Part shown: positions 23,397 to 57,426 of the stretch, in pieces
Position numbering within the stretch: the stretch's first letter is position 1
Layout: every line of letters begins with the position of its first letter
From: Escherichia phage PECP14
Direction: 5' to 3' (one strand)
Sequence record: OQ870555.1
DNA: 64,000 bases
Notes under the pieces: generated by a model
Databases searched by the model: none
Seen by the model: the letters and a program-made list of their open reading frames with translations, nothing else
Told to the model about the DNA's origin: nothing
Program-made: the position numbers and the translations under genes

Positions 23397-23424
23397 TGCT
23401 TACTGAGTGAAATTCAAATATAAT
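23397..23424 (+). promoter_or_regulatory. early promoter cassette (TTGCTT -35, TATAAT -10)
   Basis: A-rich upstream tract, TTGCT, 16-18 bp spacer, TATAAT, then conserved leader; precedes 23450 CDS. Confidence 0.5.
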
Positions 23425-23449
23425 ATATTTTATAAATTGGAGACACTTA

Positions 23450-23703
23450 TGGGACTCTTTAAAAAGAAAGTTTATTTAACACAAAGTCAAGAACGCAGGT
23501 TCTTAGCTCTGTCTCAGTATTACCATTTACCTTTCGATCATTTCATAGAACGGGCGTTAGAACAATTCCTAGAAAAGGAATTAAGGGCAATTAGACCTGA
23601 ACCGCCAAGAGCACCAAATGATGCACAGAGAGGTCATCCACGTATCCCACCTATGCCGCCAGTTCCACCAGCGACTAGGGTCATTATAGAAGGTGATAAA
23701 TAA
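23450..23703 (+). CDS. hypothetical protein (Pro-rich C-terminus)
   Basis: start after promoter cassette and GGAGA SD. Confidence 0.45.
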
Positions 23704-23972
23704 TGTCTATTCTTTTATCTGCTTTAGAAGCAAAGCAAAATACTATTGCTAGTATTAAAAAGGAAGTAATTGATCTGGAATCACTTATCGCCGTAGAAAT
23801 CGATAAAGCCATTAAAGATAAAGAATTTAACTGCCACATCCAGGGACTGACTGAATACTCAGAAAACGCTAGAAATAGCGTTATGCAAAAACTTAGCAAA
23901 CTAGGTTATGTTGTAGAAGCTAAGTATGAACAGCGTGAAGGTTTTTGGCTTGAAATTGATTGGAGCAAATAA
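23703..23972 (+). CDS. hypothetical protein
   Basis: ORF. Confidence 0.45.
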   Translation: MSILLSALEAKQNTIASIKKEVIDLESLIAVEIDKAIKDKEFNCHIQGLTEYSENARNSVMQKLSKLGYVVEAKYEQREGFWLEIDWSK

Positions 23973-24448
23973 TGTCGGTTTTCCACATATATACAGATGG
24001 TGCATGTAAAGGCAATCCTGGTTTAGGTGCGTGGGGATTTGTTGTCTATAATGATAATGATGATCGTATTGGCTCTAAATCTGGCTTTAGCCCTAAAACT
24101 ACTAATAACGAAATGGAACTTACTGCAATTGTAGAAGTTCTTCGTTGGTCTACTAAGAAAGATAATCGTCCAGTAATTATCTACACTGATTCTGCTTACT
24201 GCAAAAATGGTATGGAAAGCTGGATGTGGTCTTGGCAGAAGAAAGGCTGGAAGAAGGGAGATGGTGAAACTCCTCTCAATTTAGAACTCTGGCAAGAAGC
24301 GTTTAAACTAACTCAACAGTATATTAATTTCCATGATACTAACCCAACCTTTGTTAAGGTTAAAGGTCACTCAGGTATTCGTGGTAATGAAGAAGTTGAT
24401 GCTCTATGCAATACTGTAATTACTGAGCAAGAACTTGATGAGATGTAA
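23972..24448 (+). CDS. rnh: ribonuclease H
   Basis: YTDGAC...ELTAIVE...YTDSAY RNase H motifs. Confidence 0.75.
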   Translation: MSVFHIYTDGACKGNPGLGAWGFVVYNDNDDRIGSKSGFSPKTTNNEMELTAIVEVLRWSTKKDNRPVIIYTDSAYCKNGMESWMWSWQKKGWKKGDGETPLNLELWQEAFKLTQQYINFHDTNPTFVKVKGHSGIRGNEEVDALCNTVITEQELDEM

Positions 24449-24468
24449 TAAATAAATTAAAAATTCAC

Positions 24469-24497
24469 TTGCTTAAAGCCCTCGAATTTAGTATAAT
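24469..24497 (+). promoter_or_regulatory. early promoter cassette
   Basis: AAAAATTCACTTGCTTAAAG...GTATAATATT; 17-bp spacer. Confidence 0.55.
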
Positions 24498-24524
24498 ATT
24501 CGTATTGAAAGTGAGGAGGGCTTT

Positions 24525-24803
24525 ATGCGAATTTACAACTCAAATTCATTAGGATTTAAACCTTTGAGAAAACGCGCACAATCTCCGCGTCAGATCAGAA
24601 AGGCAAATATTGGTGAGCCAGAAACTAGGCTTCCACCACCTCCGGAGCAACGTCTAGTTTACCTAGACGAAGAATTAGCCGAAAGGGAACGCAAAGCTCA
24701 AGAAGAAATTGAGCGTAAGAAACTATGTACTGCTCCTGCATATAATAAGGGTGGTTATCAGTACGTTTCCAGTGAGGAACAAGCTAAGATGATCGGCAGA
24801 TAA
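24525..24803 (+). CDS. hypothetical protein
   Basis: promoter cassette + GAGGAGG SD. Confidence 0.5.
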   Translation: MRIYNSNSLGFKPLRKRAQSPRQIRKANIGEPETRLPPPPEQRLVYLDEELAERERKAQEEIERKKLCTAPAYNKGGYQYVSSEEQAKMIGR

Positions 24804-24820
24804 TTTTTAAAAAATTCATT

Positions 24821-24849
24821 TGCTAAACGCTTCAAAATTTCGTATAATA
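24821..24849 (+). promoter_or_regulatory. early promoter cassette
   Basis: TTGCTA-17-TATAAT followed by ATAAATTGAT leader. Confidence 0.55.
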
Positions 24850-24887
24850 TATCTCATAAATTGATTAACAAAAAAGGAAAACAAATA

Positions 24888-25403: not shown

Positions 25404-25408
25404 TGATT

Positions 25409-25432
25409 GATGGGGCGAAAGCCCCATATACT
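25409..25432 (+). terminator. GAAA-tetraloop hairpin (terminator/stability element)
   Basis: GGGGCGAAAGCCCC; same hairpin recurs at 25689-25704. Confidence 0.4.
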
Positions 25433-25464
25433 AACTCTTTCTCTGACTAATTAAGGATATTTTT

Positions 25465-25680: not shown

Positions 25681-25688
25681 TTTAAATC

Positions 25689-25712
25689 AGGGGGCGAAAG
25701 CCCCTCTTATTT
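25689..25712 (+). terminator. GAAA-tetraloop hairpin (terminator/stability element)
   Basis: GGGGCGAAAGCCCC + CTTATTT. Confidence 0.4.
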
Positions 25713-25721
25713 GGAGAAACT

Positions 25722-25934: not shown

Positions 25935-25964
25935 TAGTTTTCTACAACAATAAAGGACATAATT

Positions 25965-26666
25965 ATGAAATTCAAGCCCTTTGGTATGCTGGACATTGAA
26001 TCTCTAGGTACTCCAGGAAATTGCGGTACTACTCATATTGCAATGCCTTCTTTCGCTTTTGTAGCGATGCACGGAATTGATAAAGATCCTGATCTGGTAT
26101 TCGTTACTCTAGACGTTCAAGATCAGCTTAATGCGGGTGCTAAGGTAACTGCCTCTACTATTGCATTCTGGATGGATCAAGCTAAAAACAGTCCATCTGC
26201 GCTCCATATTATGGAGGCTCTAAATGGTCGTAATCCTAAACTGATTGCCTTCCGTGATGGTAAGCATCACTGCACTAATGACGTAGGCTCTAATTATGCT
26301 GCCTTCTCTATGGCTCAGAACATTATGGAATTGTCTCTAGGAGATAATGCTCTGTATTACGGCAATGGCCCAGAGTTTGATATGACAATCTACTCTGCAA
26401 ATACGTTCCATGCCGGAACCCATGAAGAAATAGTTCCGTGGAAATTCTGGAACTTAGGTAACGTTCGATCTTTCCGTAATCAGTGGATGCAAGCTGGTTA
26501 TAGCTATAAAGATCTAGAAGCCGAAGGTGCTAGCTGGGCAAAAGCTAAAATGGAAAAGATGGACACCATTCGTTATGGAATCTATCCTGTGAAGCATGAT
26601 CCAGCATTCGATGCTTTAGTTGAAAGTTATTGTGTAGCCGTCATGATCGAAAAAATCAAAATTTGA
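25965..26666 (+). CDS. putative DEDDh-type 3'-5' exonuclease
   Basis: MLDIESLG (exo I-like) and HDPAFDALV (exo III-like H..D) motifs. Confidence 0.45.
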   Translation: MKFKPFGMLDIESLGTPGNCGTTHIAMPSFAFVAMHGIDKDPDLVFVTLDVQDQLNAGAKVTASTIAFWMDQAKNSPSALHIMEALNGRNPKLIAFRDGKHHCTNDVGSNYAAFSMAQNIMELSLGDNALYYGNGPEFDMTIYSANTFHAGTHEEIVPWKFWNLGNVRSFRNQWMQAGYSYKDLEAEGASWAKAKMEKMDTIRYGIYPVKHDPAFDALVESYCVAVMIEKIKI

Positions 26667-26667
26667 T

Positions 26668-26696
26668 TTGCTTTCAGCTCCAAAATTCTGTATAAT
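26668..26696 (+). promoter_or_regulatory. early promoter cassette
   Basis: TTGCTT-17-TATAAT. Confidence 0.55.
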
Positions 26697-26736
26697 ATAT
26701 TCATAAATTTGAGAGAACAACAAAAGGAAAACAATT

Positions 26737-26919
26737 ATGCCAGTATCTAAAAACGTCCGTAAAAATGGTAAAGTAGCAAAACGTAACCTGGGTCTGCGTC
26801 GTATGGCTGAACGTCAGTCCGGCATCCAGAAAATCTTTAACGTACTGAATCGCGCCAATCCGAATATTGATAACAGTTCTGATACTGTTCTGCGCACTCT
26901 GCTGGCAATCGGTCTGTAA
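26737..26919 (+). CDS. small basic protein
   Basis: promoter cassette upstream. Confidence 0.45.
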   Translation: MPVSKNVRKNGKVAKRNLGLRRMAERQSGIQKIFNVLNRANPNIDNSSDTVLRTLLAIGL

Positions 26920-26973
26920 TAGACCGTTTTTAAAACAAATTCAAATCTCAAACTTCATATAAGGAAGCAAATA

Positions 26974-27612: not shown

Positions 27613-27996
27613 TAATTTAAAAGACTAGTAAATCGGTAGACGAAAGCCCAAGCATCTTACCTCGCAGCAGCGGTTGAAATACGAGGTTAAATAAGACCGC
27701 TGACCATACTATAAAGTATAATCTATTGGAGATTATGTTTATTACATCAGACATTTAATCTGACACGTAAAAACAAAAGGTCGTTGGTAGTACCAACACA
27801 ACTTCAAAGATCAACGCTCAAGTATGAAAGCTGAAAAGTTAAAAGCACTCAAACTTCTAACCTTCTAAAGCTAAAAGATGCAAAGTATTCGTTGATGATT
27901 CAAACCCTAGATCAAAGGTACATGGCTCATAAGATATGGCCTGTGGCGCCTCTAGGCTGTTTATCGGTTTACTAGTCTCTCAATTTAAAAATGTAT

Positions 27997-28025
27997 TTGC
28001 TAATTAGTTTAGTTTTCTGTATAAT
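27997..28025 (+). promoter_or_regulatory. early promoter cassette
   Basis: TTGCTA-17-TATAAT + ...TAAATTGATGAGA. Confidence 0.55.
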
Positions 28026-28055
28026 ATATTTTTAAATTGATGAGACGAGGCTATT

Positions 28056-28373: not shown

Positions 28374-28378
28374 ATAAA

Positions 28379-28828
28379 ATGAAGGCAGCTTTGCTTTTAA
28401 TAGCTGCCCTAACCTATAGCTTCAATAGTCATGCGACCTACGACTCAAAGCAGATTGATTGCATTGCAAAAAATATCTACTTCGAAGCACGAGGTGAGGG
28501 CACTAAAGGAATGATCGCAGTTGCACAGGTTACTAAAAACCGTGTTAACTCTGGTACTTTTCCTGATTCTTACTGTAAAGTAGTATATCAGTCTAACCAG
28601 TTCTCTTGGGTGGCCAAGAGACCAAAAGTTGATAAAACCGATGAGGCTTGGCAAGTTGCTAAGAATTTAGCTAGAGTGATATACTACGTTGATTTACCAC
28701 AAGATCCAACACATGGAGCGTTATACTTCCATAGTGGTAAAGATAAACCGTACTGGACAAAGAAGTTTAAGAAAACAACGAAGATTCAAGGCCATACGTT
28801 TTACAAGCCTGTGGTTAAGAAAACTTAA
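28379..28828 (+). CDS. SleB/CwlJ-type cell-wall hydrolase, secreted
   Basis: signal peptide MKAALLLIAALTYSFNSHA; NIYFEARGE...AVAQVTKNRV...QFSW motifs. Confidence 0.7.
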   Translation: MKAALLLIAALTYSFNSHATYDSKQIDCIAKNIYFEARGEGTKGMIAVAQVTKNRVNSGTFPDSYCKVVYQSNQFSWVAKRPKVDKTDEAWQVAKNLARVIYYVDLPQDPTHGALYFHSGKDKPYWTKKFKKTTKIQGHTFYKPVVKKT

Positions 28829-28837
28829 AAAATTCGA

Positions 28838-28866
28838 TTGCTTAAAGCCTTAAATTTCTGTATAAT
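28838..28866 (+). promoter_or_regulatory. early promoter cassette
   Basis: TTGCTT-17-TATAAT + ATAAATTAATGAGAGGA. Confidence 0.55.
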
Positions 28867-28897
28867 ACTTTCATAAATTAATGAGAGGAAGCGAAAT

Positions 28898-29068: not shown

Positions 29069-29517
29069 TGGAAGAGAATATTCTAGATGTTTTGCGTAGG
29101 GCTTTGCAGGAATCTAAGGTTGATGGTTCTGATAAAGAAGTAGCTAAAAGCTACCAGACCATAATCGGAGATCTTCAGCGTGTTGATAAAGACTTCATTA
29201 CTTCTGAACAGTTTGTATCTTATCTAAAAGCTCAACTGAAAAGCATTAATCAGACGAAAGCTAAACTTCACGGTCAAGACCTTGATAATTATAGCTTGCA
29301 GTCTGCTCAGTATGAATATATACTGAACAAATGGTTACAACAGTATCTGCCGCCTCAGCTTTCTGATTCTGAGATTCGCAAATACTTTGCAGAATTAGTT
29401 AAGTTGAACCCTGGGATTACGAAGGGTATGCTGATGAAAGCGATTAAGGAAGAATTCCCTGGTCGTTATGATGGTGGTATTGCTGCTCAAGTTGCTGGCG
29501 AATTCAATAAAAATTGA
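29068..29517 (+). CDS. GatB/YqeY-domain-like protein
   Basis: C-terminal GMLMKAIKEEFPGRYDGGIAAQVAGEF. Confidence 0.4.
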   Translation: MEENILDVLRRALQESKVDGSDKEVAKSYQTIIGDLQRVDKDFITSEQFVSYLKAQLKSINQTKAKLHGQDLDNYSLQSAQYEYILNKWLQQYLPPQLSDSEIRKYFAELVKLNPGITKGMLMKAIKEEFPGRYDGGIAAQVAGEFNKN

Positions 29518-29518
29518 T

Positions 29519-29547
29519 TTGCTAAACGCTTCAAAATTCTGTATAAT
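29519..29547 (+). promoter_or_regulatory. early promoter cassette driving a non-coding region
   Basis: TTGCTA-17-TATAAT; no ORF downstream until tRNA-Arg at 30382. Confidence 0.55.
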
Positions 29548-29569
29548 AGATTCATAAATTAGAGAACAG

Positions 29570-33400: not shown

Positions 33401-33459
33401 CTCCTAGTATATAGAAAATGTGTGTCTCTTTGATCACTCATCTATAACATATACTTTAC

Positions 33460-33500
33460 ACTACCCCAGCGAAAATGTCAAGGGGTCTTTAAAAATTGCC
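33460..33500 (-). promoter_or_regulatory. leftward sigma70-like promoter for the convergent module
   Basis: minus strand CCTTGACATTTT...TAAAGT, then TAGGAGGTG SD before 33400 ATG; coordinates approximate. Confidence 0.4.
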
Positions 33501-33597
33501 CCCGGATTTTTAGTGGGATAACAATTTCTGGACCTCACCACTCACCTGCTACCCTTAAGTGCCCTGCGATTTTCCACTAAAAAGTTTAAAAATTCGA

Positions 33598-33626
33598 TTG
33601 CTTGAATGCTAAATTCTCTGTATAAT
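33598..33626 (+). promoter_or_regulatory. early promoter cassette
   Basis: TTGCTT-17-TATAAT + TTATAAATTTGAGAGAGGAA. Confidence 0.55.
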
Positions 33627-33656
33627 ATATTTATAAATTTGAGAGAGGAATCAAAT

Positions 33657-34712
33657 ATGATTAAGACTGGTCTAGTAATTGGTAAGTTCGCACCATTAAC
33701 GCGTGGTCATATTAACCTAATAAACACAGCAGCAACTATGTGTGAACGAGTTATTGTTGTAGTTAGTCATGATAATCGTTGGCTGGATAAGCAGAACACA
33801 CGTGATCAGGAAGTATTACAGTTAAAGAATCGACTTCGTTGGTTAGAACAAACTTACGCGGATATTGAGCACGTTTCGGTAGAGTACATTATTGAAGATG
33901 ATATTCCTGAATATCCGAATGGTTGGCCGGAATATGCTAGAATCCTTAATGAAAATTATGGACATTTGCCTGAGATCACCATTTTCTCTAGCGAACTAGA
34001 CTATGATGCAGAATATAAGAAATATCTGCCGAAGTTTGGTCATTATATTGTAGATTCTGATCGGACTCGTGTTCCAATCTCAGCTACAATGATTCGTAAT
34101 GATCTTATGAAGTATTGGGAGTTTCTTCCTAGCGTAGTTCGTAAAGATTACGTGCGTAAGGTTGTAATCATTGGGACTGAAAGCTCAGGCAAAACAACTT
34201 TAACAAAGTACCTTGCGAAATTATATAATACTTCGTGGGTAGAAGAATATGGTCGTACTTACTGCGAAGTTGATCTAGTTGGTAATGAAGAACTCCTGAC
34301 TAGCGAGGACTATAATAAAATTGCATTCAGGCACAAAGAGCTAGAGTTTGAGGCAGAACGTACTGCAAATAAGATCATGTTTGTAGACACAAATGCTTTC
34401 ATTACAGAGTTTTATCACAGACTTTACGAGCATCGTAAAAATCCGGTTGTAACAGCTATTGCTAAAGAAGAGCATTATGATTTAGTTATAGTTTTAGCAC
34501 CTACTGTTAAGTGGGTAGATGATGGTTTACGTATTAACTCCGATCGTTCAATTACTTCTGAACTGTTCGAGCAGATGAAGAAAGAATTTCCTAATCAGTT
34601 TCCAGAAGGGCGTACTGTATATATTGACTCCCCGGACTATAAGGTTCGTATGGACGAAGCAGTAAACGCAGTAGACTGGCTGATTCATCACTTTAACGTT
34701 GGAGAGTTTTAA
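33657..34712 (+). CDS. NadR-like NMN adenylyltransferase / ribosylnicotinamide kinase
   Basis: GKFAPLTRGH (HxGH nucleotidyltransferase) and GTESSGKTTL (Walker A kinase). Confidence 0.65.
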   Translation: MIKTGLVIGKFAPLTRGHINLINTAATMCERVIVVVSHDNRWLDKQNTRDQEVLQLKNRLRWLEQTYADIEHVSVEYIIEDDIPEYPNGWPEYARILNENYGHLPEITIFSSELDYDAEYKKYLPKFGHYIVDSDRTRVPISATMIRNDLMKYWEFLPSVVRKDYVRKVVIIGTESSGKTTLTKYLAKLYNTSWVEEYGRTYCEVDLVGNEELLTSEDYNKIAFRHKELEFEAERTANKIMFVDTNAFITEFYHRLYEHRKNPVVTAIAKEEHYDLVIVLAPTVKWVDDGLRINSDRSITSELFEQMKKEFPNQFPEGRTVYIDSPDYKVRMDEAVNAVDWLIHHFNVGEF

Positions 34713-35425: not shown

Positions 35426-35438
35426 CAGAAATTTTCAC

Positions 35439-35467
35439 TTGCTTTATATAGAAAATTTCTGTATAAT
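35439..35467 (+). promoter_or_regulatory. early promoter cassette
   Basis: TTGCTT-17-TATAAT; near-identical leader to the 33598 copy. Confidence 0.55.
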
Positions 35468-35497
35468 ATATTTATAAATTTGAGAGAGGAATCAAAC

Positions 35498-35794
35498 ATG
35501 AAACACATTGTACTTGCATTGACTCTAGTATCTACTTCTGTATTTGCTGCTCCACAACAGGAACTTTGTCAAGTTCAAGTTTGTAATAAGCTAGAACGAT
35601 TTACTCTAGACATTTGGTCGCACATTAAAGATAATATGGGTGAACAGTGTTTTGATATTGTTCTGCCAAAAGAACAAGCTGTTCCTGGGGCTGTTCTCAG
35701 CTCAGAATCACGTTGGTGGCAGGGTTCTTCTATCAACCCAACTAAGAAGTCAGTGACACGTATCAAACAAGTATATCAGTGCAATGTTCAGTAA
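35498..35794 (+). CDS. small secreted Cys-containing protein
   Basis: signal peptide MKHIVLALTLVSTSVFAAP. Confidence 0.45.
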   Translation: MKHIVLALTLVSTSVFAAPQQELCQVQVCNKLERFTLDIWSHIKDNMGEQCFDIVLPKEQAVPGAVLSSESRWWQGSSINPTKKSVTRIKQVYQCNVQ

Positions 35795-35802
35795 AATTTC
35801 AC

Positions 35803-35831
35803 TTGCTTAATGCCGAAATTTTCTGTATAAT
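35803..35831 (+). promoter_or_regulatory. early promoter cassette preceding tRNA-Ser
   Basis: TTGCTT-17-TATAAT. Confidence 0.55.
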
Positions 35832-35845
35832 ATATTCATAAATTC

Positions 35846-35939
35846 GGAAGATTAACCCTAAAGGTAAGGGAGCTGTTTGCTAAACAGCCAGTAGCTGTGG
35901 AGACACGGTGTGCCAGTTCGAATCTGGCATCTTCCTCCA
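35846..35939 (+). tRNA. tRNA-Ser(GCT)
   Basis: acceptor GGAAGAT/ATCTTCC; AC loop TTGCTAA; long variable arm; follows promoter. Confidence 0.7.
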
Positions 35940-37008: not shown

Positions 37009-37038
37009 CTCCTCCAAGCAGAAATTTTAAAAATGTAC

Positions 37039-37068
37039 TTGCTTTTTACTTAAGATTTCTGCTATAAT
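37039..37068 (+). promoter_or_regulatory. early promoter cassette
   Basis: TTGCTT-18-TATAAT. Confidence 0.5.
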
Positions 37069-37098
37069 AGTTATATAAATTGATGAAGGAGTTAACGA

Positions 37099-37374: not shown

Positions 37375-37410
37375 CTGATATAGCACTGAGCAAGTTCTTT
37401 AAAATTTGAC

Positions 37411-37439
37411 TTGCTCAGTCCTTCAAAACTTGATATAAT
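37411..37439 (+). promoter_or_regulatory. early promoter preceding tRNA cluster
   Basis: TTGACTTGCTC / TATAAT. Confidence 0.5.
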
Positions 37440-37503
37440 AGTTATCTAATTTGGAAAACATATTTAAAAGTGTTTAAACTAGTATTTGAATATTTCTAAA
37501 TAT

Positions 37504-37769: not shown

Positions 37770-37844
37770 GCACCTTTAGCTGAGATGGATTAGCGCTTGC
37801 CTGAAGAGCTTGAGAGGTTGGATCGTTACCAACGGGGTGCACCA
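37770..37844 (+). tRNA. tRNA-Phe(GAA)
   Basis: acceptor GCACCTT/GGGGTGC; AC loop CTGAAGA; T-arm GTTGG-ATCGTTA-CCAAC (atypical loop). Confidence 0.5.
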
Positions 37845-37846: not shown

Positions 37847-38134
37847 TTGAAGGAGATGCTGATGCATCCTGAAAACTTCTTTATTTACTGTGCGGATAAG
37901 TCACTGAAACGCAGAATTAACAAAGTCTATCATTATCGTGCTAGTCAACAGCCTTATGTTTATGCTTTTGATGGAGAAACCATTCCACTAGAGCAGTTGG
38001 CTTGTGATTACATGGTATTGAAGAACTTTGATGAGACAAAGATCTCAAGCGTTCATAATCGACAGAACCCATTAACGTGGAAGTATAAGAAGAAAAAGAA
38101 AGGCATCATATTTCTGAAAAATGTAGTTGCTTAA
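37847..38134 (+). CDS. hypothetical protein
   Basis: ORF after tRNA cluster. Confidence 0.4.
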   Translation: MKEMLMHPENFFIYCADKSLKRRINKVYHYRASQQPYVYAFDGETIPLEQLACDYMVLKNFDETKISSVHNRQNPLTWKYKKKKKGIIFLKNVVA

Positions 38135-38155
38135 CCGCTTAAAGTTCTGTATAAT
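38127..38155 (+). promoter_or_regulatory. early promoter cassette
   Basis: TTGCTT-17-TATAAT. Confidence 0.5.
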
Positions 38156-38184
38156 TATTACATAAATTGAACTGGAGAAGCAAC

Positions 38185-39685: not shown

Positions 39686-39933
39686 AATTTAGGTTTCTGC
39701 TTCCTAGAGAACGAACTCCTAGATAAACAAGGTGATGAGTTTCCGGCCGGTTCTAGTCGCTGAAAATCCTCCCGACCAGGTAGGTGTAAGTAAACGAAAG
39801 TTTACTTATTAAGTAAGTCCGACACATCGGCGGGTGTGTTCTAGTACTTAAAGAAGGTCTAGCAAACTTTCTCGCTAGCATGAGTTGATAGCTCGGTGAC
39901 TTACCTAATAAGTAAATTTATTAAAAAATGTAG

Positions 39934-39962
39934 TTGCTATTTAGCTTAATTCTCTGTATAAT
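39934..39962 (+). promoter_or_regulatory. early promoter preceding tRNA-Pro/Met cluster
   Basis: TTGCTA-17-TATAAT. Confidence 0.5.
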
Positions 39963-39994
39963 ATATTTTATAAAGTGAGTTAACAAAGAATATT

Positions 39995-40990: not shown

Positions 40991-41344
40991 ATGCAATTAT
41001 CAAGCAAGGTTCAAGGCTATTTCGGACATGTAACAATGGAGTTCGCTATCTCTAAAGGTTGGGACTTCGAACAAGATTTAGCTGAGTTCTACAAAGATAT
41101 TGATCTGAACGTACCGTACATGGGACTCTCAACTGGTCAAGAGATCACAGAAGCCGACGTGTTCAAGGCAAGTCAAGGTGAGGTAACACCTAGTTTTGCC
41201 GAGTTCTGGTTAGGTATCACACTGAAAGAAGATGCACCGGATAGTGGAGTACTAATGACTAGTATGCACTCTGGAAGCTCTGATTACCTTTTCGTTAGTG
41301 ACGTTAAGGAAATACAAGAAATCTGCAAAAATGTACTTGCTTGA
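40991..41344 (+). CDS. hypothetical protein
   Basis: ORF after tRNA-Val. Confidence 0.45.
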   Translation: MQLSSKVQGYFGHVTMEFAISKGWDFEQDLAEFYKDIDLNVPYMGLSTGQEITEADVFKASQGEVTPSFAEFWLGITLKEDAPDSGVLMTSMHSGSSDYLFVSDVKEIQEICKNVLA

Positions 41345-41365
41345 TGCTTAATTTCTTGTTATAAT
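41337..41365 (+). promoter_or_regulatory. early promoter driving a non-coding stretch
   Basis: TTGCTT-17-TATAAT; next ORF starts 360 bp downstream. Confidence 0.5.
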
Positions 41366-41725
41366 ATTTATATAAATTGATGTGAAAATAGCTGCCTAGA
41401 TATTAGGTGTATGACGTCTACACTAGCAGAGCTACCGAAAAAAGAGATCCTCAGGATAAACGCCGTAGCAAAATTAGTCTGATATCCATCAATTTAGTTC
41501 ACTAAGGTATTAGCTCGACCTAGGACTGGCTGCCAAAAAGCACGGTTGCAATTAGACCCATAATGGCGGGGGATACTTTGCAAGAAGTTCTAGATTAGTC
41601 CACTAGATTCAGCGGCAACTGAATAGTGTATCGGGTTTGTGGAGAGCGGTTATCCTCTACTGGCTAATGTCTGAGGGTAATACGCACACCGAGCTAATAG
41701 CCTTAGTAAACTAGAAGGAATATCT
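41366..41725 (+). ncRNA. candidate promoter-driven non-coding RNA
   Basis: 360 bp with no ORF after the promoter at 41337-41365; GC-rich. Confidence 0.3.
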
Positions 41726-42865: not shown

Positions 42866-43069
42866 ATGAAACACATTGTTAAGTATACCGAAAGCGAACG
42901 TGGCTGGGGTGGTGAAATCTGGTATCGTCCATTTGACACCGAGGCCGAAGCCTTGATGGAAGTTAATGATGTAAATAAAGATCTACCTAAAGATCATGTG
43001 CCAACATACTACATCCAAGCTGAGTATATTGGTGTTAAGGATAAGGTTCCCGAAGGTTACAAGTTTTAA
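42866..43069 (+). CDS. hypothetical protein
   Basis: start after tRNA-Ser with AAGGAAA SD. Confidence 0.45.
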   Translation: MKHIVKYTESERGWGGEIWYRPFDTEAEALMEVNDVNKDLPKDHVPTYYIQAEYIGVKDKVPEGYKF

Positions 43070-43388
43070 ATAATTCTTGAAGTATGCCGGAATCGGTAGA
43101 CGGGGCTTCCTAAAGGGCGTAAGGGGAACATCCACTCCTCATAAGATACCCGAAAACGAGGCTGAGATAAATGGTCTATCTCGTGAAGGTTCAAGTCCTT
43201 CTGCTTCTTGATACATCAATGGCTCAAAGAGTAACGGTGCACCTTTCTAGAGAATTTCCTGGGCGAGAATCCAGGTGTAATCAACTAGTTGTTAGTGTGA
43301 TGAGTTTCGGAGAGCCGCCACAATTGAAGTCTTTAGAATGGGTATCGCCCTTTAGCCCCTCCGAAAGGGATAACTAGAGATTTCAATT

Positions 43389-44255: not shown

Positions 44256-44422
44256 TAATCTAAAGCTAAAGGTAGATAAACAAATGAAGTGCGTTGAGGT
44301 TGAGTTGGGTGAAGAACGTTTAAAACTCTCCTTCGAATTCTTACAACAGTTGGCTATGACAGTAATGTCTGATAAGTCTCCTGTATTTGAAAAAGAAATT
44401 CCGTTGAAATAACGGGTTTATT

Positions 44423-44497
44423 GCTCCTAAAGCATTGCTGGCAATGCAGTTGCCTTGTAAGCATCTGAACCGGGTTCGATTCCTGGTGGGAGCACCA
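44423..44497 (+). tRNA. tRNA-Thr(TGT)
   Basis: D-stem GCAT/ATGC; AC loop CTTGTAA; T-loop TTCGATT. Confidence 0.65.
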
Positions 44498-44512
44498 AAT
44501 TTAAAAATTCAT

Positions 44513-44541
44513 TTGCCTTCTCTCTTATTTCTTGTTATAAT
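44513..44541 (+). promoter_or_regulatory. early promoter cassette
   Basis: TTGCCT-17-TATAAT. Confidence 0.5.
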
Positions 44542-44571
44542 ATTTATATAAATTAATGAGAGGGAAGGCAA

Positions 44572-46201: not shown

Positions 46202-46387
46202 ATGAAAATTTTTAAAGTGAACTATAGCGGCCTGTGGTTAGGTGGTACAGCTATTGTTGTTGCGGAAACTGCGGAAGAAGCAATCGAACTGGCTAGAAAC
46301 CATAGAAGTTCTATAGAATTCGAGAATGTGACAGTAGAAGAACTCCCTAGCAGTGGGGTAGTGTACAACGACAACGGAGATTACTAA
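46202..46387 (+). CDS. hypothetical protein
   Basis: ORF. Confidence 0.4.
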   Translation: MKIFKVNYSGLWLGGTAIVVAETAEEAIELARNHRSSIEFENVTVEELPSSGVVYNDNGDY

Positions 46388-46445
46388 TGTTATATTTTGA
46401 AGTTCGTCCACATTAAGTTAATTTAAGAGACTTAATGGAGGTAAT

Positions 46446-48968: not shown

Positions 48969-48981
48969 AATAAAATTTCAG

Positions 48982-49010
48982 TTGCTCAGATGCCACAAGT
49001 ATTGTATAAT
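48982..49010 (+). promoter_or_regulatory. early promoter
   Basis: TTGCTC-17-TATAAT. Confidence 0.5.
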
Positions 49011-49041
49011 ATGTTTATAGATTGAGGCAAAAGGATAATTT

Positions 49042-49740: not shown

Positions 49741-50146
49741 GTGGTATATCCTGGGAGCTGGTCTTGCGATAGGTATCGGATTCGGTGCTTATCACTTAGT
49801 AAGTAAGGTTGAAACTCTAGCTGGAGATCTTGCAGTTGCGACTAAAAAGATCTCCACTCTAGAGACTTCCCTTAATAAGGTGAAAACTGAGAGTGAACTT
49901 CGTGAGACTCGAATGAACCAGTATTTCACAATGAATAATATTTCGCAAGCAGATCTAGACAAAAAGATTAAGCAGCTAGATAAAGCTCTTAGTCGTCAAG
50001 ATGTTATCGCTGCAAAGCCTGGATTGGTAACATTAATTGCTAAAAAGCAGAATAAAGAGTTCGAGGAAAGATTAGCATGTTTAACTGGAAACTTGGAGTA
50101 CTGCTCGCAGCCGCAATCACAATCACAGGCTGTGCAGAAGAAATAA
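49697..50146 (+). CDS. membrane-anchored coiled-coil protein
   Basis: N-terminal TM then coiled coil. Confidence 0.45.
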   Translation: MDLIQKLLSGIWQGKWYILGAGLAIGIGFGAYHLVSKVETLAGDLAVATKKISTLETSLNKVKTESELRETRMNQYFTMNNISQADLDKKIKQLDKALSRQDVIAAKPGLVTLIAKKQNKEFEERLACLTGNLEYCSQPQSQSQAVQKK

Positions 50147-51802: not shown

Positions 51803-51836
51803 AAGCCAGAGTTGTTAAACTCTGGCTTTTCTTTTG
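51803..51836 (+). terminator. intrinsic terminator
   Basis: AGCCAGAGTT-GTTA-AACTCTGGCT + TTTCTTTT. Confidence 0.6.
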
Positions 51837-51897: not shown

Positions 51898-51926
51898 TTG
51901 TAATTTTCCTCTAGAATTAGTATAAT
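51898..51926 (+). promoter_or_regulatory. sigma70-like promoter upstream of holin-like gene
   Basis: TTGTAA-17-TATAAT followed by GGAGG SD and GTG start. Confidence 0.45.
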
Positions 51927-53509: not shown

Positions 53510-53522
53510 TATAAAAAAGTAG

Positions 53523-53551
53523 TTGACTTTCCGCTGAAATTTTTATATAAT
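53523..53551 (+). promoter_or_regulatory. early promoter (TTGACT variant)
   Basis: TTGACT-17-TATAAT + ATAAATTGAATCAGAGGAG. Confidence 0.55.
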
Positions 53552-53584
53552 ATTTGTATAAATTGAATCAGAGGAGTTTCACAA

Positions 53585-53995
53585 ATGTCAGATCGTTACT
53601 ATACTCAGATGGCTAACCATTACAATATGGCTCCGTATGAATTGAACATCGCATTACGTGACCTCGATTCACCAGAGCGTGCAAAACTTGAGAAAAAGGC
53701 GGGAATTCGTATGTCTAGCAAGGGCAAGAAACTTACTCGTATTGACTTAAATACCATGCTAATGGAAGAGCTTGGCGTGAATATTGAAGGTCAGAAGTTG
53801 CCTCTCAATGTTCTTGAAACGATGCTGGATAAAGTCAAAAAGAAAACCTATAAGAAAGTACAAGTACCGGAAGGCAGGCTAAAAGCCCCTTATCAGGCTG
53901 CTGTATCTGAGTGCTTAGGTGCTACCTTAGATCTTAGCACTGCAACAGTAAAAGTAATGAAGGCATTTTTGGAGGCCATTAATAAACATGAGTAA
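53585..53995 (+). CDS. hypothetical protein
   Basis: promoter cassette upstream. Confidence 0.5.
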   Translation: MSDRYYTQMANHYNMAPYELNIALRDLDSPERAKLEKKAGIRMSSKGKKLTRIDLNTMLMEELGVNIEGQKLPLNVLETMLDKVKKKTYKKVQVPEGRLKAPYQAAVSECLGATLDLSTATVKVMKAFLEAINKHE

Positions 53996-54278: not shown

Positions 54279-54284
54279 TACCCA

Positions 54285-54316
54285 AAGCCTAGTCTTAGCT
54301 GACTAGGCTTTTTTAT
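54285..54316 (+). terminator. intrinsic terminator
   Basis: AAGCCTAGTC...GACTAGGCTT + TTTTT. Confidence 0.6.
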
Positions 54317-54319
54317 TAC

Positions 54320-54349
54320 TTGCTTTCTGCTAAAAATTTTGATATAATA
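54320..54349 (+). promoter_or_regulatory. early promoter cassette
   Basis: TTGCTT-18-TATAAT. Confidence 0.5.
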
Positions 54350-54379
54350 TATGTATAAATTGATGAGAGGAGTATCACA

Positions 54380-55623: not shown

Positions 55624-55991
55624 TGGAACGTGAAGAACGTTATGTAGTTATAAAGCTGTCTGATATTGAGAAAGCCCTAGAATTAGGGCATATCACTCAA
55701 AGTAACTTTACCACTTTGGAACATATCTTGTCCAAACTATGGTATAGTCGAGCACAACGTGGTAAAGAAGATCTCAAAACCGTCGTGGTAGAGCATGATT
55801 GGCCAGAGTACGAAGAAGTCTGGAAAATGCTAGAGAATCGTGTTGGTTTTGAGCAAGCACGACAGGAAGAACTTGACAAAGGATATCAAGAAGCGAAAGA
55901 GCACCATGAGGTTTATGATGAAATATTCAAACTTCGTGGTATTAGTAGTTATTGTCAGGGTTGGAATAAATATGCGGAGGAAGTTCTGTAA
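55623..55991 (+). CDS. hypothetical protein
   Basis: ORF. Confidence 0.45.
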   Translation: MEREERYVVIKLSDIEKALELGHITQSNFTTLEHILSKLWYSRAQRGKEDLKTVVVEHDWPEYEEVWKMLENRVGFEQARQEELDKGYQEAKEHHEVYDEIFKLRGISSYCQGWNKYAEEVL

Positions 55992-56197
55992 TGAAGAGAT
56001 TACTACTATTATCAGTACTAATACTAGCTGGATGTGATTCCTACGATGATAATATGAGATTTACTGCAGAAGATACAAAACACTTATGTGATGTAGCTGG
56101 AGGTGAGCTAGATTATTCCAGTATTCAAATTGGACTCACAAAAGGTATATTCTACGATAGTTATACTATTACATCCACATGTGTAAGGGATAAATAA
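55991..56197 (+). CDS. putative lipoprotein
   Basis: lipobox LILAGC. Confidence 0.4.
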   Translation: MKRLLLLSVLILAGCDSYDDNMRFTAEDTKHLCDVAGGELDYSSIQIGLTKGIFYDSYTITSTCVRDK

Positions 56198-56787
56198 TGA
56201 AAGTTAAATTCTGGAGTGAACTCCACTTAGACCACCCAGGGATTCTTCGTTTTCGCCCCTGGTTTAAGAACATGAAAGAGCACGATGAGTATATCCTAGA
56301 TACTTTGTCCAAGCACATTGGCAAGCGTACAAAACTTGTGCTGCTAGGAGATAGTGCCGTGGGGCGAGAAGGGTTGGCCAAGTTGAAGTCGGTTATCCAC
56401 AACGTGCCTAACCAGCTAATTATGGGAAACCACGATGCAGAGCGTCAGGGTCTACGTATTAAAGATCTTGTAGACGTTTATGACGATATTCAGGCTCTAG
56501 GTAAGCAAACAGGTGGTGGCAAGAAGTTCTGGCTGTCGCACTGTCCTTTACACCCAGAGGAACTTCGTGGTAAGCTGAACATTCACGGACATGTGCACAC
56601 CAATTCTGTGCGTGACCCACGTTATATCAACGTCTCTTTTGAGATGAGCAAGACTCCTATTCCTTTAGAGGATATTGTGTCTGGCAAGTTCACAAGCTAT
56701 GATAAAGTGGTTAACTGCACTACTGGTGAAGTACTCCAAATCGATGAAGATGTGGTAGCGGTATTGAGGGAAGATATCAATGTTTGA
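56197..56787 (+). CDS. calcineurin-like metallophosphoesterase
   Basis: LLGDSAVG, GNHD, GHVHT motifs. Confidence 0.55.
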   Translation: MKVKFWSELHLDHPGILRFRPWFKNMKEHDEYILDTLSKHIGKRTKLVLLGDSAVGREGLAKLKSVIHNVPNQLIMGNHDAERQGLRIKDLVDVYDDIQALGKQTGGGKKFWLSHCPLHPEELRGKLNIHGHVHTNSVRDPRYINVSFEMSKTPIPLEDIVSGKFTSYDKVVNCTTGEVLQIDEDVVAVLREDINV

Positions 56788-56849
56788 TTTTGATGGCATG
56801 GCTCGTGAGATATTTATAGCAATAGGGATAGTAGTTCTTATCTCTTTCT

Positions 56850-56880
56850 TTATAGGCCTAGGCTTAGGCCTTTTATTTTA
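56850..56880 (+). terminator. palindromic hairpin + T-run
   Basis: GGCCTAGGCTTAGGCC + TTTTATTTTA. Confidence 0.45.
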
Positions 56881-56888
56881 AAACTTCA

Positions 56889-56918
56889 TTTGCTAAAACG
56901 CTTAGTTTTCTGTATAAT
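56889..56918 (+). promoter_or_regulatory. early promoter cassette
   Basis: TTGCTA-18-TATAAT. Confidence 0.5.
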
Positions 56919-56948
56919 TACTTTATAAATTGATGAGAAGGAATCAAA

Positions 56949-57380
56949 ATGCAAAAGATTGATAAAGCACTCTTAATCGCAACAGCAGATAAGTTTGAGC
57001 AAGTTAAAGCTACTTTTAAGGCAGTCTTTCAGTCCTATGTTCAAGACAAATCGAACCCGATTTCTGAGCGTTTGATGATGTGGGAATGTTTTGCTTGCAA
57101 TGCTCTGCTAATTTCCGATTATAAGGGAGAAGTATCTGAGGAATTGCATGAGATCTTTATTAATGAGGATACTCCACGCTATCAGTTAGTGAACTTCCAA
57201 GATCTAGCTGAGCAAGTTATTCCTGATGATCTTTGGGACAAGTATTACGGTGATCCTGAAGAAGATGGTATGGAACCTGAGAAGTGCATTGAACTGATCT
57301 GTAAGGATCATCCTGAAATTGCTGAGAAATTTGAGTTAGTATTTGCTTCTGAGTTCTCAGGTTTCGTTAACGATTGGTAA
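56949..57380 (+). CDS. hypothetical protein
   Basis: promoter cassette upstream. Confidence 0.5.
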   Translation: MQKIDKALLIATADKFEQVKATFKAVFQSYVQDKSNPISERLMMWECFACNALLISDYKGEVSEELHEIFINEDTPRYQLVNFQDLAEQVIPDDLWDKYYGDPEEDGMEPEKCIELICKDHPEIAEKFELVFASEFSGFVNDW

Positions 57381-57397
57381 GTAAATAAAAAATTCAG

Positions 57398-57426
57398 TTG
57401 CTTTTAGCTTTAAAATTCTGTATAAT
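57398..57426 (+). promoter_or_regulatory. early promoter cassette
   Basis: TTGCTT-17-TATAAT. Confidence 0.5.

Follow-up and report, generated by a model that had tools for sequence, protein, structure and literature searches.

The repeated cassette in the 64-kb stretch of phage DNA analyzed here (the window) is the early promoter of T5-like phages, a real, ordinary and already known element. We put the probability at about 93% that the copies are strong promoters of the early class of T5-like phages (Tequintavirus), each served by the host sigma-70 polymerase and each fused to a short 5' untranslated region of standard design. This reading builds on how the sequence is organized, how many copies there are, their orthology with T5, two patterns of conservation and a split of the leader into two halves, all of which are described below. 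At protein genes the two halves, one for transcription and one for translation, stand together, and at tRNA and noncoding RNA units the transcriptional half stands alone.

Copy number and location of the cassette

An 80-column position-weight matrix (PWM) spanning -55 to +25 was run over the window. It returned 32 genuine copies scoring 30 to 72 bits each, against a ceiling of 13.5 bits set by the best of 100 dinucleotide shuffles. The leader motif ATAAATTGATGAGAGG, with up to three mismatches allowed, gave 15 matches where 1.2 were expected and where shuffles reached at most 6. Only the extended cassette stands out in this way; generic sigma-70 hexamer pairs do not, as a two-hexamer scan showed no enrichment over shuffles (46 against 46.4, and 63 against 56). 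A 33rd matrix match, at 44536 on the minus strand, was dismissed as an antisense artefact. The site at 57-28 on the minus strand stands outside the 32, its -55 flank lying so close to the window end that the scan skipped it; its spacer is 18 bp long.

The family extends from 4034 to 60516, and all copies are codirectional with the genes downstream of them. The first-pass annotation had placed more than 25 copies on both strands between 23397 and 57426. Repetition far beyond chance was upheld by the matrix scores, but this interval holds 22 copies, all on the plus strand, and the seven minus-strand copies lie further left (predicted +1 at 4034, 5400, 6617, 7649, 11190, 14502 and 16476, with the further site at 57-28). 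The predicted promoters and related sites are as follows, with offsets counted from +1.

28-57, minus: related promoter core, TTGCCG-N18-TATAAT, leader GGTAAGTTAGAGAAG; orthologue of T5 70987-71061, upstream of the DNA polymerase gene
4019-4080, minus: early promoter with leader, predicted +1 4034, PWM 70.5 bits; orthologue of T5 P-K28a (ligB); ATG +25
4134-4162, minus: other-class promoter, TTGACA-N17-TATACT, lacking the ATAAATT leader; orthologue of T5 P-K28b
5385-5446, minus: early promoter with leader, +1 5400 (ligA), exact ATAAATTGATGAGAGG; ATG +24
6602-6663, minus: early promoter, +1 6617, variant start ATAGTTTGA; orthologue of T5 P-N26; long leader, ATG +53
7634-7695, minus: early promoter with leader, +1 7649; orthologue of T5 P-N25 (73/75 identical), best known of the set; upstream of D2; ATG +26
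11175-11236, minus: early promoter, +1 11190; orthologue of T5 58999-59073; no ORF within 260 nt; upstream of the origin-binding protein gene
14487-14548, minus: early promoter with leader, +1 14502; orthologue of T5 55708-55782; ATG +23
16461-16522, minus: nrdD promoter, hybrid, +1 16476, TTGACA -35, leader CTTAGTTAGAGAAGGAGG, lowest PWM score (30 bits); orthologue of T5 53884-53958
16563-16591, plus: promoter, TTGCCA-N17-TATAAT, G+C-rich start region lacking ATAAATT; orthologue of T5 53776-53850
16693-16754, plus: early promoter, +1 16739, start GTAAGTTGA; ATG +68; orthologue of T5 53638-53712 (phoH side)
20290-20351, plus: early promoter, leader replaced, +1 20336 being the ATG of an HNH endonuclease ORF; orthologue of T5 50061-50135
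23385-23446, plus: early promoter with leader, +1 about 23431-23432, TATAAATTGGAGAC; first copy cited at first pass
24458-24519, plus: early promoter, +1 24504, leader ATTGAAAGTGAGGAGG; orthologue of T5 46337-46411
24809-24870, plus: early promoter, +1 about 24855; orthologue of T5 P-H207; ATG +34
26657-26718, plus: early promoter, +1 26703; orthologue of T5 44393-44467; ATG +35
27986-28047, plus: early promoter with leader, +1 28032; orthologue of T5 43067-43141
28827-28888, plus: early promoter with leader, +1 28873; orthologue of T5 P-D/E33
29508-29569, plus: early promoter of a noncoding RNA and tRNA-Arg, +1 29554, ATAAATTA kept, no Shine-Dalgarno; orthologue of T5 P16-17
33453-33481, minus: other-class promoter, TTGACA-N17-TAAAGT; orthologue of T5 P12; divergent from copy 33633
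33587-33648, plus: early promoter with leader, +1 33633; orthologue of T5 P15a, here driving nadR-pnuC
35428-35489, plus: early promoter with leader, +1 35474; no T5 counterpart; -12 to +22 identical to copy 33633
35792-35853, plus: early promoter, +1 35838; orthologue of T5 P15b; tRNA-Ser from +9, directly after ATAAATTC
37028-37090, plus: early promoter with leader, 18-bp spacer, +1 37075; orthologue of T5 P15c
37400-37461, plus: early promoter, +1 37446, start CTAATTTGG; tRNA-Tyr at +59; orthologue of T5 P14a
38116-38177, plus: early promoter with leader, +1 38162; orthologue of T5 P14b
39923-39984, plus: early promoter, +1 about 39969; tRNA-Pro at +27; orthologue of T5 P13a
41326-41387, plus: early promoter, +1 41372; orthologue of T5 P13b; noncoding stretch, then tRNAs
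44502-44563, plus: early promoter with leader, +1 44548; orthologue of T5 P11
46848-46909, plus: early promoter with leader, +1 46894, exact ATAAATTGATGAGAGG; orthologue of T5 26722-26796
48971-49032, plus: early promoter with leader, +1 49017, ATAGATTGAGG; orthologue of T5 24443-24517
51898-51926, plus: holin/endolysin promoter, TTGTAA-N17-TATAAT, leader GGTTAGAGGAGG, not of the ATAAATT type; orthologue of T5 20998-21071
53512-53573, plus: early promoter with leader, +1 53558, TTGACT -35, leader ATAAATTGA; orthologue of T5 19368-19442
54309-54370, plus: early promoter with leader, +1 54355, directly 3' of terminator hairpin 54284-54311; orthologue of T5 18550-18624
56879-56940, plus: early promoter with leader, +1 56925, 3' of terminator hairpin 56854-56871; orthologue of T5 P-F30
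57387-57448, plus: early promoter with leader, +1 57433; orthologue of T5 16245-16319; last copy cited at first pass
60470-60531, plus: weak family member, +1 60516, TTGACG -35, leader CAAAAGTTAAAACAGGAG; orthologue of T5 13212-13286
62951-62980, plus: other-class promoter, perfect consensus TTGACA-N18-TATAAT; points into a structured noncoding stretch

A second promoter class had been suggested from two TTGACA sites, at 16511-16483 (minus) and 62951-62980 (plus). Both sites are present and the suggestion was right in outline: there is a separate TTGACA class, and T5 has pre-early, early and late classes. The T5 promoters P-H22, P-G25, P-J5, P12 and P-K28b resemble the cassette in using the host sigma-70 polymerase and an A-rich upstream region, but differ from it in a TTGACA -35, a weaker or different -10 and the absence of ATAAATT; the orthologues of P12 and P-K28b lie in the window at 33481-33453 and 4162-4134, both on the minus strand. 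Scanning T5 with the matrix gave 34 sites at 13-76 kb and one more at 110404, the promoter of the lytic conversion lipoprotein gene lpp. Neither the terminal repeat of T5 nor its late promoters P-G25 and P-J5 gave a match.

Anatomy and conservation of the cassette

Each copy carries an upstream block, AAAA(A)TTT, followed by the -35 hexamer TTGCT(T/A) (TTGCTT or TTGCTA in 23 of the 32), a spacer of 17 bp (18 bp in one full copy) and the -10 hexamer TATAAT. The discriminator is A/T rich, with A at -6 and T at -5, -3 and -1, and reads exactly ATATT in only 8/32 copies. The leader consensus is ATAAATT(G/T/A)..GAGAGG, with +1 at its first A, and then runs into a C-poor stretch of purines that includes the Shine-Dalgarno sequence. 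The consensus drawn up at first pass, from A-tract through TTGCT(T/A), 17- to 18-bp spacer and TATAAT to a leader ending in the Shine-Dalgarno, matches this alignment of the copies.

Summed information amounts to 11.5 bits over +1 to +16, compared with 10.1 for the -10 and 8.5 for the -35, and per position to 0.90 bits at +1 to +8 and 0.54 at +9 to +16, compared with 1.4-1.7 in the hexamers; the -10 and -35 conservation values, here and below, are inflated because the copies were selected on these hexamers. The spacer and the sequence upstream of -50 and beyond +18 hold almost no information. Thirty of the 31 pairs of a copy and its T5 counterpart entered an alignment of orthologues, in which identity was 0.96 at +1 to +8, 0.97 at the -35 and 1.00 at the -10, against 0.72-0.84 in the flanks and 0.80 at +17 to +25. 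This pattern of identity indicates purifying selection. The earlier statement that the leader is as conserved as the core therefore holds for summed information and for orthologue identity, but not position by position.

The two halves of the leader

ATAAATT begins exactly 6 nt past TATAAT in most of the copies coupled to a protein gene (18/23). The start codon in 23 copies falls anywhere from +19 to +35 (median, +25), with the Shine-Dalgarno core at a median of +13. A Shine-Dalgarno-like sequence is found in 22/23 protein-coupled copies but in 0/9 of those with an RNA gene or a long leader. These nine nevertheless hold ATAAATT, with a mean of 5.8/7 matches compared with 3.2 at random positions. 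The fixed distance from the -10, the retention of the block at tRNA promoters without a Shine-Dalgarno and its high identity between orthologues suggest that ATAAATT acts in transcription initiation. Among the functions initially listed for the leader, promoter clearance or initiation is thus favored for +1 to +8 and translation initiation for about +9 to +17, while support for RNase processing was not found in the sequence data.

Published experiments on T5 promoters bear on the first half. The N25 oligonucleotide TATAATAGATTCAT is numbered -12 to +2 (PMC7472727), which places +1 at the A of ATAAATT. Replacement of +3 to +20 of N25 by an "anti" sequence lowered productive RNA synthesis about 10-fold, the native initial transcribed sequence gave the easiest promoter escape, and the first C of N25 comes not before +30 (PMC12464699); purine-rich initial sequences also correlate with high productive yield (PMC10911233). 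The proposal of selection on the initial transcribed region agrees with this effect (PMC12464699; PMC10911233). In the window, +1 to +20 is likewise of the native N25 type, purine rich and nearly C-free; however, the N25/N25anti work (Hsu laboratory) concerned a single promoter and leaves unexplained one heptamer at about 30 promoters per genome, family-wide (PMC12464699). In infected cells, Klimuk et al. obtained primer-extension products for only 11 of the 19 in vitro-mapped T5 promoters that they tested (PMC7472727). The start site and the initial-transcribed-sequence effect come from the published experiments on N25; we infer from orthology and sequence that the remaining 31 copies resemble N25 in behavior and that each copy fires. 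A specific sequence goes beyond what the literature on initial transcribed sequences asks for, namely richness in purines or in A/T generally. Escape was slowed by a TG step near +6/+7 when many other promoters were screened (PMC5961368), and the cassette consensus has TG at +7/+8. The ATAAATT block may therefore be conserved for something besides, or other than, fast escape.

Relationship to T5 and other phages

Read as its reverse complement, the window corresponds to T5 at about 9.75-71.06 kb, collinear at 73-93% identity, and comprises the whole early region. For 31 of the 32 copies, the exception being 35474, the syntenic T5 counterpart is annotated as a promoter in GenBank AY543070, where these features are 75 bp long and many have names dating from promoter mapping in the 1980s, such as P-N25, P-N26, P-K28a, P-H207, P-D/E33, P-F30, P11 and P13a to P16-17. 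The T5 early promoters are thus one-to-one syntenic orthologues with the same upstream A-block, TTGCT(T/A), 17-bp spacer, TATAAT and ATAAATT at +1. The two phages are nevertheless different species: the window phage has its closest matches (96-97%) in Salmonella phages PRF-SP13 and Sepoy, and further near-identical ones among Eps7-like Salmonella and E. coli phages. Compared with T5, the window has the extra copy 35474 beside a nadR-pnuC insertion, and its copy 20336 has lost the leader to the HNH endonuclease gene.

The early promoters of the lytic coliphage T4 are similar in being dozens of very strong sigma-70 promoters with an extended consensus and an upstream A-tract; they differ from the T5 type in their -35 consensus, and T4 and T5 are unrelated by sequence. 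T4 early promoters are not known to contain a conserved transcribed block. The conserved first transcribed bases and ribosome-binding site of T5-like early promoters have been known since the 1980s, and T5 early promoters were reportedly described by Gentz and Bujard in 1985 and Kammerer et al. in 1986. For phage AKFV33, Niu et al. (2012) listed the same number of promoters, 32, with a consensus almost identical to the first-pass one (TTGCTw, TATAATA, 17-18 bp, AAAAATT at -43, TAAATT at +1), but called the +1 region only "AT-rich" and did not separate start block from ribosome-binding site (PMC3326045). Three more distant phages also retain the cassette: Klebsiella phage IME260, Proteus phage PM135 and Vibrio phage pVp-1, with helicases that share 71%, 41% and 39% identity, respectively, with that of the window. 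In these genomes, 53-67% of sites with the upstream block and TTG-N17-TATAAT have at least 6/7 of ATAAATT at +1, against a background of about 1%.

Alternative explanations

The block from the discriminator to +8 might instead be a class label, read by a phage factor that switches the early set on or off, rather than an intrinsic strength element. Such a factor could be gpT5.026, which binds the polymerase, the DNA-binding protein D5 or another phage protein. We regard this as improbable, and it could coexist with the strong-promoter reading. In T5 the motif belongs to the early class only, being missing from pre-early and late promoters; it is conserved in Demerecviridae infecting three host families, and each of the three distant genomes named above has an annotated D5 homologue. 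According to Klimuk et al., the discriminator is the main difference between early and late T5 promoters, the hold of polymerase on the -5/+2 segment is weakened by gpT5.026, and loss of normal T5.026 function in a phage mutant raises early RNA and lowers late RNA (PMC7472727). The TG step near +7 is also unlike a pure escape optimum. However, the host polymerase alone makes N25 and its relatives very strong, both on plasmids and in vitro, the N25 initial-transcribed-sequence effect arises without a phage protein, and the exact discriminator is confined to a quarter of the copies. Somewhat less probable still is a role as RNA, in which the 5' AUAAAUU would serve as a translational enhancer (an A/U-rich S1 site), a determinant of 5'-end stability or an RNase processing signal. 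The leaders are indeed A/U and purine rich (71% purine), almost C-free (0.9 C per 20 nt; 3.97 expected) and weakly folded, at a mean of -3.4 kcal/mol over +1 to +45 compared with -6.2 for random coding-strand 45-mers (p = 5e-5), and their second half is clearly a ribosome-binding site. Yet composition-matched shuffles reach -3.1 kcal/mol, so the weak folding follows from base composition alone, and no Rfam family matched any leader. ATAAATT is kept at tRNA and noncoding RNA promoters that have no ribosome-binding site, with the tRNA at 35838 beginning at +9, and its distance is fixed to TATAAT and not to the start codon.

On a last reading, which is close to refuted, the copies would form a selfish or passive repeat family that owes its uniformity to recent spread through duplication and recombination rather than to selection at each position. 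The identity of copies 33633 and 35474 from -12 to +22, flanking an insertion absent from T5, would fit such a history, as would the 15 of 74 window-T5 homology breakpoints that lie no more than 60 nt from a start site (4.5 expected; P of about 2e-4). Against it, likeness is confined to discrete functional blocks, the orthologues hold syntenic sites in T5, the same blocks occur in phages whose proteins are only 39-41% identical, and every copy is co-oriented with a gene at the correct spacing.

Implications

As an early-class promoter joined to a standard leader, the cassette would work as follows. The alpha subunits would use AAAA(A)TTT at -45 to -37 as a UP element, the hexamers TTGCT(T/A) and TATAAT would serve as -35 and -10 elements with 17 bp between them, and the A/T-rich discriminator would ease DNA melting. 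Transcription would start at the A of ATAAATT, and the +1 to +8 block, as part of the promoter ("downstream region" or initial transcribed sequence), would set the efficiency of polymerase escape. The C-poor purine run would then supply the Shine-Dalgarno, with its core near +13, ahead of a start codon near +25, and the 60-bp unit would give every early gene module strong transcription plus strong translation. To what was known, the analysis makes two small additions, namely the family-wide conservation of the cassette in Demerecviridae and its place as a marker of mosaic junctions.

Promoter-leader cassettes are T5-type early promoters

A weight-matrix scan confirmed that a promoter-leader cassette of about 60 bp recurs in the window. 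The 80-column matrix (-55 to +25) was seeded with TTGC..-N17-TATAAT sites and then iterated; it returned 33 matches of 30-72 bits in the window, against a top score of 13.5 bits in 100 dinucleotide-preserving shuffles. One match, at 44536(-), is an antisense by-product of copy 44548 and was not counted, leaving 32 full copies, each named here by its predicted +1 position. The first-pass annotation had placed more than 25 copies on both strands at 23397-57426; this holds for the window as a whole, whereas the interval itself contains 22 copies, all on the plus strand. The recurring architecture was evident on both strands with the loose expression TTGNNN-N16-19-TANAAT, and the leader motif ATAAATTGATGAGAGG had 15 matches in the window at up to 3 mismatches, compared with a shuffle mean of 1.2 and maximum of 6. 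A generic two-hexamer sigma-70 scan of the window did not rise above shuffles and is uninformative in this A/T-rich genome; the signal therefore resides in the extended cassette. The pattern TATAAT-N9-GATGAGAGG, in which the N9 spacing is wrong for the cassette, had no match in the window.

Predicted +1 positions of the cassette copies (matrix scan)
4034, 5400, 6617, 7649, 11190, 14502, 16476; minus strand; full copies
16739, 20336, 23431, 24504, 24855, 26703, 28032, 28873, 29554; plus strand; full copies
33633, 35474, 35838, 37075, 37446, 38162, 39969, 41372; plus strand; full copies
44548, 46894, 49017, 53558, 54355, 56925, 57433, 60516; plus strand; full copies
57-28; minus strand; additional related site near the left window edge

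By megablast, Salmonella phages PRF-SP13 and Sepoy shared 96-97% identity with the window, and further near-identical matches were found among Eps7-like Salmonella and E. coli phages. In blastn against phage T5 (GenBank AY543070), it was collinear in reverse complement with T5 9,752-71,062 at 73-93% identity, a span that takes in the whole T5 early region and also the inner edge of the left terminal repeat. About 40 sites, each 75 bp long, are annotated as "regulatory / promoter" in the T5 record; many bear names from the original mapping, and these annotated sequences contain the same cassette as the window copies. A syntenic annotated T5 counterpart was found for 31 of the 32 copies, the exception being 35474, and 30 orthologous pairs were aligned. 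The cassettes correspond to the T5 early promoters, an element already known. In the T5-like phage AKFV33, Niu et al. (2012) described 32 promoters in which TTGCTw and TATAATA stand 17-18 bp apart, AAAAATT lies at -43, and TAAATT lies at +1 (PMC3326045), a consensus that matches the cassette as it was originally noticed in the window.

Window copies and their syntenic T5 promoters
7649, minus strand; P-N25 (73/75 identical)
6617, minus strand; P-N26
4034, minus strand; P-K28a
24855, plus strand; P-H207
28873, plus strand; P-D/E33
29554, plus strand; P16-17
33633, plus strand; P15a
35838, plus strand; P15b
37075, plus strand; P15c
37446, plus strand; P14a
38162, plus strand; P14b
39969, plus strand; P13a
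41372, plus strand; P13b
44548, plus strand; P11
56925, plus strand; P-F30

When the window-derived matrix was applied to T5, 34 sites were found at 13.2-75.6 kb and one at 80-121.75 kb, the lpp promoter at 110404, while the 10.2-kb terminal repeat with its pre-early genes had no site. The annotated T5 late promoters P-G25 and P-J5 had no matrix match. This distribution lends indirect support to early expression of the cassette during infection. Promoters of other types are also present in the window, orthologues of P-K28b and P12 among them; the proposal of two promoter classes, one with a TTGACA -35 hexamer, therefore holds in outline and agrees with the transcription classes known for T5.

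Promoters of other types in the window
4162-4134, minus strand; TTGACA-N17-TATACT, P-K28b orthologue
33481-33453, minus strand; TTGACA-N17-TAAAGT, P12 orthologue
62951-62980, plus strand; TTGACA-N18-TATAAT, perfect consensus
16511-16483, minus strand; nrdD promoter, a hybrid in which TTGACA and the upstream A block precede a leader of a different kind
16563-16591, plus strand; promoter without the start block
51898-51926, plus strand; promoter without the start block

Anatomy of the cassette

The core promoter was as first described, TTGC(T/A)(T/A) followed by 17-18 bp and TATAAT: the -10 hexamer TATAAT was present in 32/32 copies and TTGCTT or TTGCTA in 23/32, and the spacer measured 17 bp in 31 copies and 18 bp in the remaining copy. 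Per-column information across the window copies was 8.5 bits for the -35 hexamer TTGCT(T/A) and 10.1 bits for the -10 hexamer, the latter figure being inflated since copies were selected on it; the spacer was moderately conserved and T-rich at its 3' end. The A-rich upstream tract was likewise present (10.3 bits over -50 to -36), with a consensus of A at -45 to -42 (26-28 of 31 copies), T at -40 (29/31) and -39, and A at -37. In 1985, Gentz and Bujard reportedly already described homology among T5 promoters near -43 and over the bases transcribed first.

The discriminator (4.1 bits) was A/T-rich, with A at -6 (29/32 copies), T at -5, -3, and -1, and a mean G+C of 0.84 among its six bases. An ATATT discriminator in early promoters has been described as the main difference between early and late T5 promoters (PMC7472727); the exact ATATT was found in just 8/32 copies, so the A/T-rich feature is present as a consensus and not literally. 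Downstream, the start block at +1 to +8, ATAAATTG, carried 7.2 bits and +9 to +16 carried 4.3 bits, blurred by register shifts of a GAGAGG run, and conservation was absent past about +18. At least six of seven matches to ATAAATT were found at +1 in 67% of window sites, compared with 0.9% in the background. Variants of the start block include ATAAATT, ATAAAGTT, and ATAGTTTGA. The leaders had a purine fraction of 0.71 and contained 0.9 C per 20 nt where 3.97 would be expected. In 23 copies the start codon of a real open reading frame (ORF) lay at +19 to +35 (median, +25), with the Shine-Dalgarno core at a median of +13, 12 nt 5' of the start codon.

In Klimuk et al. (2020), the N25 oligonucleotide TATAATAGATTCAT is numbered -12 to +2, which places the N25 +1 at the A of ATAAATT (PMC7472727). 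By sequence correspondence, host sigma-70 polymerase would start at the same A in the window copies, as known for N25.

The leader consists of two elements

The leader had been described as conserved to the same degree as the core promoter, with selection on the initial transcribed region or 5' UTR as the implication, and both points were supported for its first eight bases. Across the 30 window-T5 pairs, which were found with the same matrix on T5 sites that are also independently annotated, identity was 1.00 at the -10 hexamer, 0.97 at the -35 hexamer, 0.96 at +1 to +8, and 0.88 at +9 to +16. In the flanks of the same pairs it was 0.80 at +17 to +25 and 0.72-0.75 beyond that, and 0.80-0.84 on the upstream side of -47. 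Conservation of the start block is therefore as tight as that of the -35 hexamer. A Shine-Dalgarno-like sequence was found at +8 to +24 in 22 of the 23 protein-coupled copies and in 0/9 copies driving tRNAs, noncoding RNA, or long leaders. These nine copies nevertheless kept ATAAATT, with a mean of 5.8/7 matches compared with 3.2 at random positions. Among the five tRNA or noncoding-RNA promoters, four (29554, 35838, 39969, and 41372) had at least 6/7 matches and 37446 had 5/7; at 35838, a tRNA-Ser gene begins at +9. In the protein-coupled copies, ATAAATT started exactly 6 nt past TATAAT in 18/23 and 7 nt past it in three more, while its distance to the start codon varied by 16 nt. Collectively, the orthologue identities, the split by type of product, and the anchoring to TATAAT resolve the leader into two elements, a promoter-anchored start block and a ribosome-binding site.

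Conservation across the family

A search with the replicative helicase, which matched roughly 900 Demerecviridae genomes, led to three further phages, each represented by 50 kb of its early region: Klebsiella phage IME260 (Sugarlandvirus; helicase 71% identical to that of the window), Proteus phage PM135 (Novosibvirus; 41%), and Vibrio phage pVp-1 (Ermolyevavirinae; 39%). Sites combining the upstream A block, TTGC.., N17, and TATAAT numbered 15-19 per phage, and 53-67% of these had at least 6/7 matches to ATAAATT at +1 against a background of about 1%; the variants ATAAAGTTGAG and ATAGTTTGAA were repeated in pVp-1. The whole cassette is therefore a family trait. No literature statement of Demerecviridae-wide cassette conservation was found; this conservation is an extension of known facts and not a new kind of element.

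Mosaic junctions and neighboring features

Of 74 window-T5 blastn breakpoints, 15 fell no more than 60 nt from a predicted +1, compared with 4.5 expected (P about 2e-4), and most of these lay at +9 to +29; the end of the conserved leader is therefore where mosaic junctions cluster. A nadR-pnuC module that is absent from T5 lies between two promoter copies, at 33587-33660 and 35428-35500 (+), whose sequences are identical from -12 to +22; duplication of promoter and leader apparently took place at the boundary of this insertion. Terminator-like hairpins on the plus strand at 23362-23378, 51803-51828, 54284-54311, and 56854-56871 lie roughly 10-70 nt 5' of a copy's -35 hexamer, and two are no more than 20 nt from it, so that many early units are terminator-promoter-leader-gene modules.

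The locus at 20301-20833 (+) has an HNH homing-endonuclease ORF (20336..20833) whose ATG coincides exactly with a predicted early-promoter +1, and the usual leader is therefore missing; this ORF would have a leaderless mRNA or be translated only from read-through transcripts. The same locus in T5 holds a different HNH gene with a normal 20-nt leader containing AAGGAG. The perfect-consensus promoter at 62951 follows the last early ORF, and the T5 sequence at the orthologous place is TTGACA-N17-TATCAT. About 165 nt 3' of this promoter are ORF-free and folded at -58 kcal/mol (z = -6.2), with a terminal hairpin and U-run. Promoter and stretch together span 62951-63170 (+); the stretch, which had no Rfam match, represents a candidate small RNA where the early region meets the terminal repeat. 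The antisense promoter-like sequence at 44536(-), TTGCCT-N17-TATAAA, is the reverse complement of the 44548(+) leader and start codon. A site of this type is also present at the T5 orthologue, 28628 (+), and in pVp-1 at 31027 (-), where it has a perfect TATAAT; the site at 44536(-) may be a chance product of an A/T-rich near-palindrome. A tRNA was called by Rfam at 37770-37841 (+) (33.4 bits), without an ARAGORN call.

Alternative readings of the cassette

A repeat family or selfish element was rejected as an explanation for the cassettes: unlike REP- or MITE-like intergenic palindromic repeats, the copies are co-oriented with the downstream gene at a fixed distance, and their leaders are weakly folded. 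Leader folding averaged -3.4 kcal/mol, against -6.2 for random coding 45-mers; composition-matched shuffles, at -3.1, folded no more strongly. Selection for a lack of RNA structure was therefore dropped, the weak folding being a by-product of base composition. A known structured 5' untranslated RNA family was likewise discarded, as Rfam matches across the whole window were to tRNAs only and no leader matched a curated covariance model at gathering score. The 12-bp palindrome ATTTAT|ATAAAT, centered between -1 and +1, is perfect in copies 4034, 5400, 41372, 44548, and 46894. An operator with dyad symmetry around +1 was rejected because a dyad perfect in only 5/32 copies is no family feature. 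An AUG at +9 (in ..TTGATGAGAGG) was rejected as a functional upstream ORF; with the frame read directly from the sequences of part of the copies, it was in frame with the gene in two and ran into a stop in at least one other (46894).

The best-supported reading of the cassette is a composite strong promoter. A UP element, a sub-consensus -35, a consensus -10, and an easily melted discriminator would be joined to an initial transcribed sequence competent for escape and to a 5' untranslated region that is minimal (about 24 nt), lacks structure, and contains a strong Shine-Dalgarno. Work of the Hsu laboratory found escape at N25 easiest with the native initial transcribed sequence, and, citing Kammerer et al. 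(1986), put the loss of productive synthesis with the "anti" sequence at N25 +3 to +20 at about 10-fold (PMC12464699). Purine-rich initial sequences have been linked to productive yield in a 2024 review (PMC10911233).

A narrower reading takes ATAAATT at +1 as a specific early-class signal, read by a conserved phage factor or programming a defined initial-transcription pause. ATAAATT is kept at about 30 promoters per genome and across at least four Demerecviridae genera, whose hosts span Enterobacteriaceae, Morganellaceae, and Vibrionaceae, and the T5 protein gpT5.026 binds polymerase and weakens its -5/+2 contact (PMC7472727). The consensus start block carries TG at +7/+8, and in a large randomized screen on other promoters a TG step at about +6/+7 slowed escape through initial pausing, which leaves room for a class-specific regulatory role (PMC5961368). 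We nonetheless regard such a signal as improbable. If it were real, it would give the phage a way to silence or retune its early units jointly at the early-to-late switch.

Significance

T5-type early promoters are among the strongest natural E. coli promoters, and N25 is a standard model of promoter escape and underlies widely used expression vectors; the cassette finding therefore rediscovers a textbook element. The additions are modest. The first eight transcribed bases can be separated from the ribosome-binding site and behave as part of the promoter; purifying selection on this start block equals that on the -35 hexamer, and the block is conserved in the phage family far beyond T5; and junctions of mosaicism between related phages cluster at the leader end. 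These additions sharpen the question of why one specific start sequence is kept, when many purine- or A/T-rich starts might serve, and whether it is tied to the T5 early-to-late switch.
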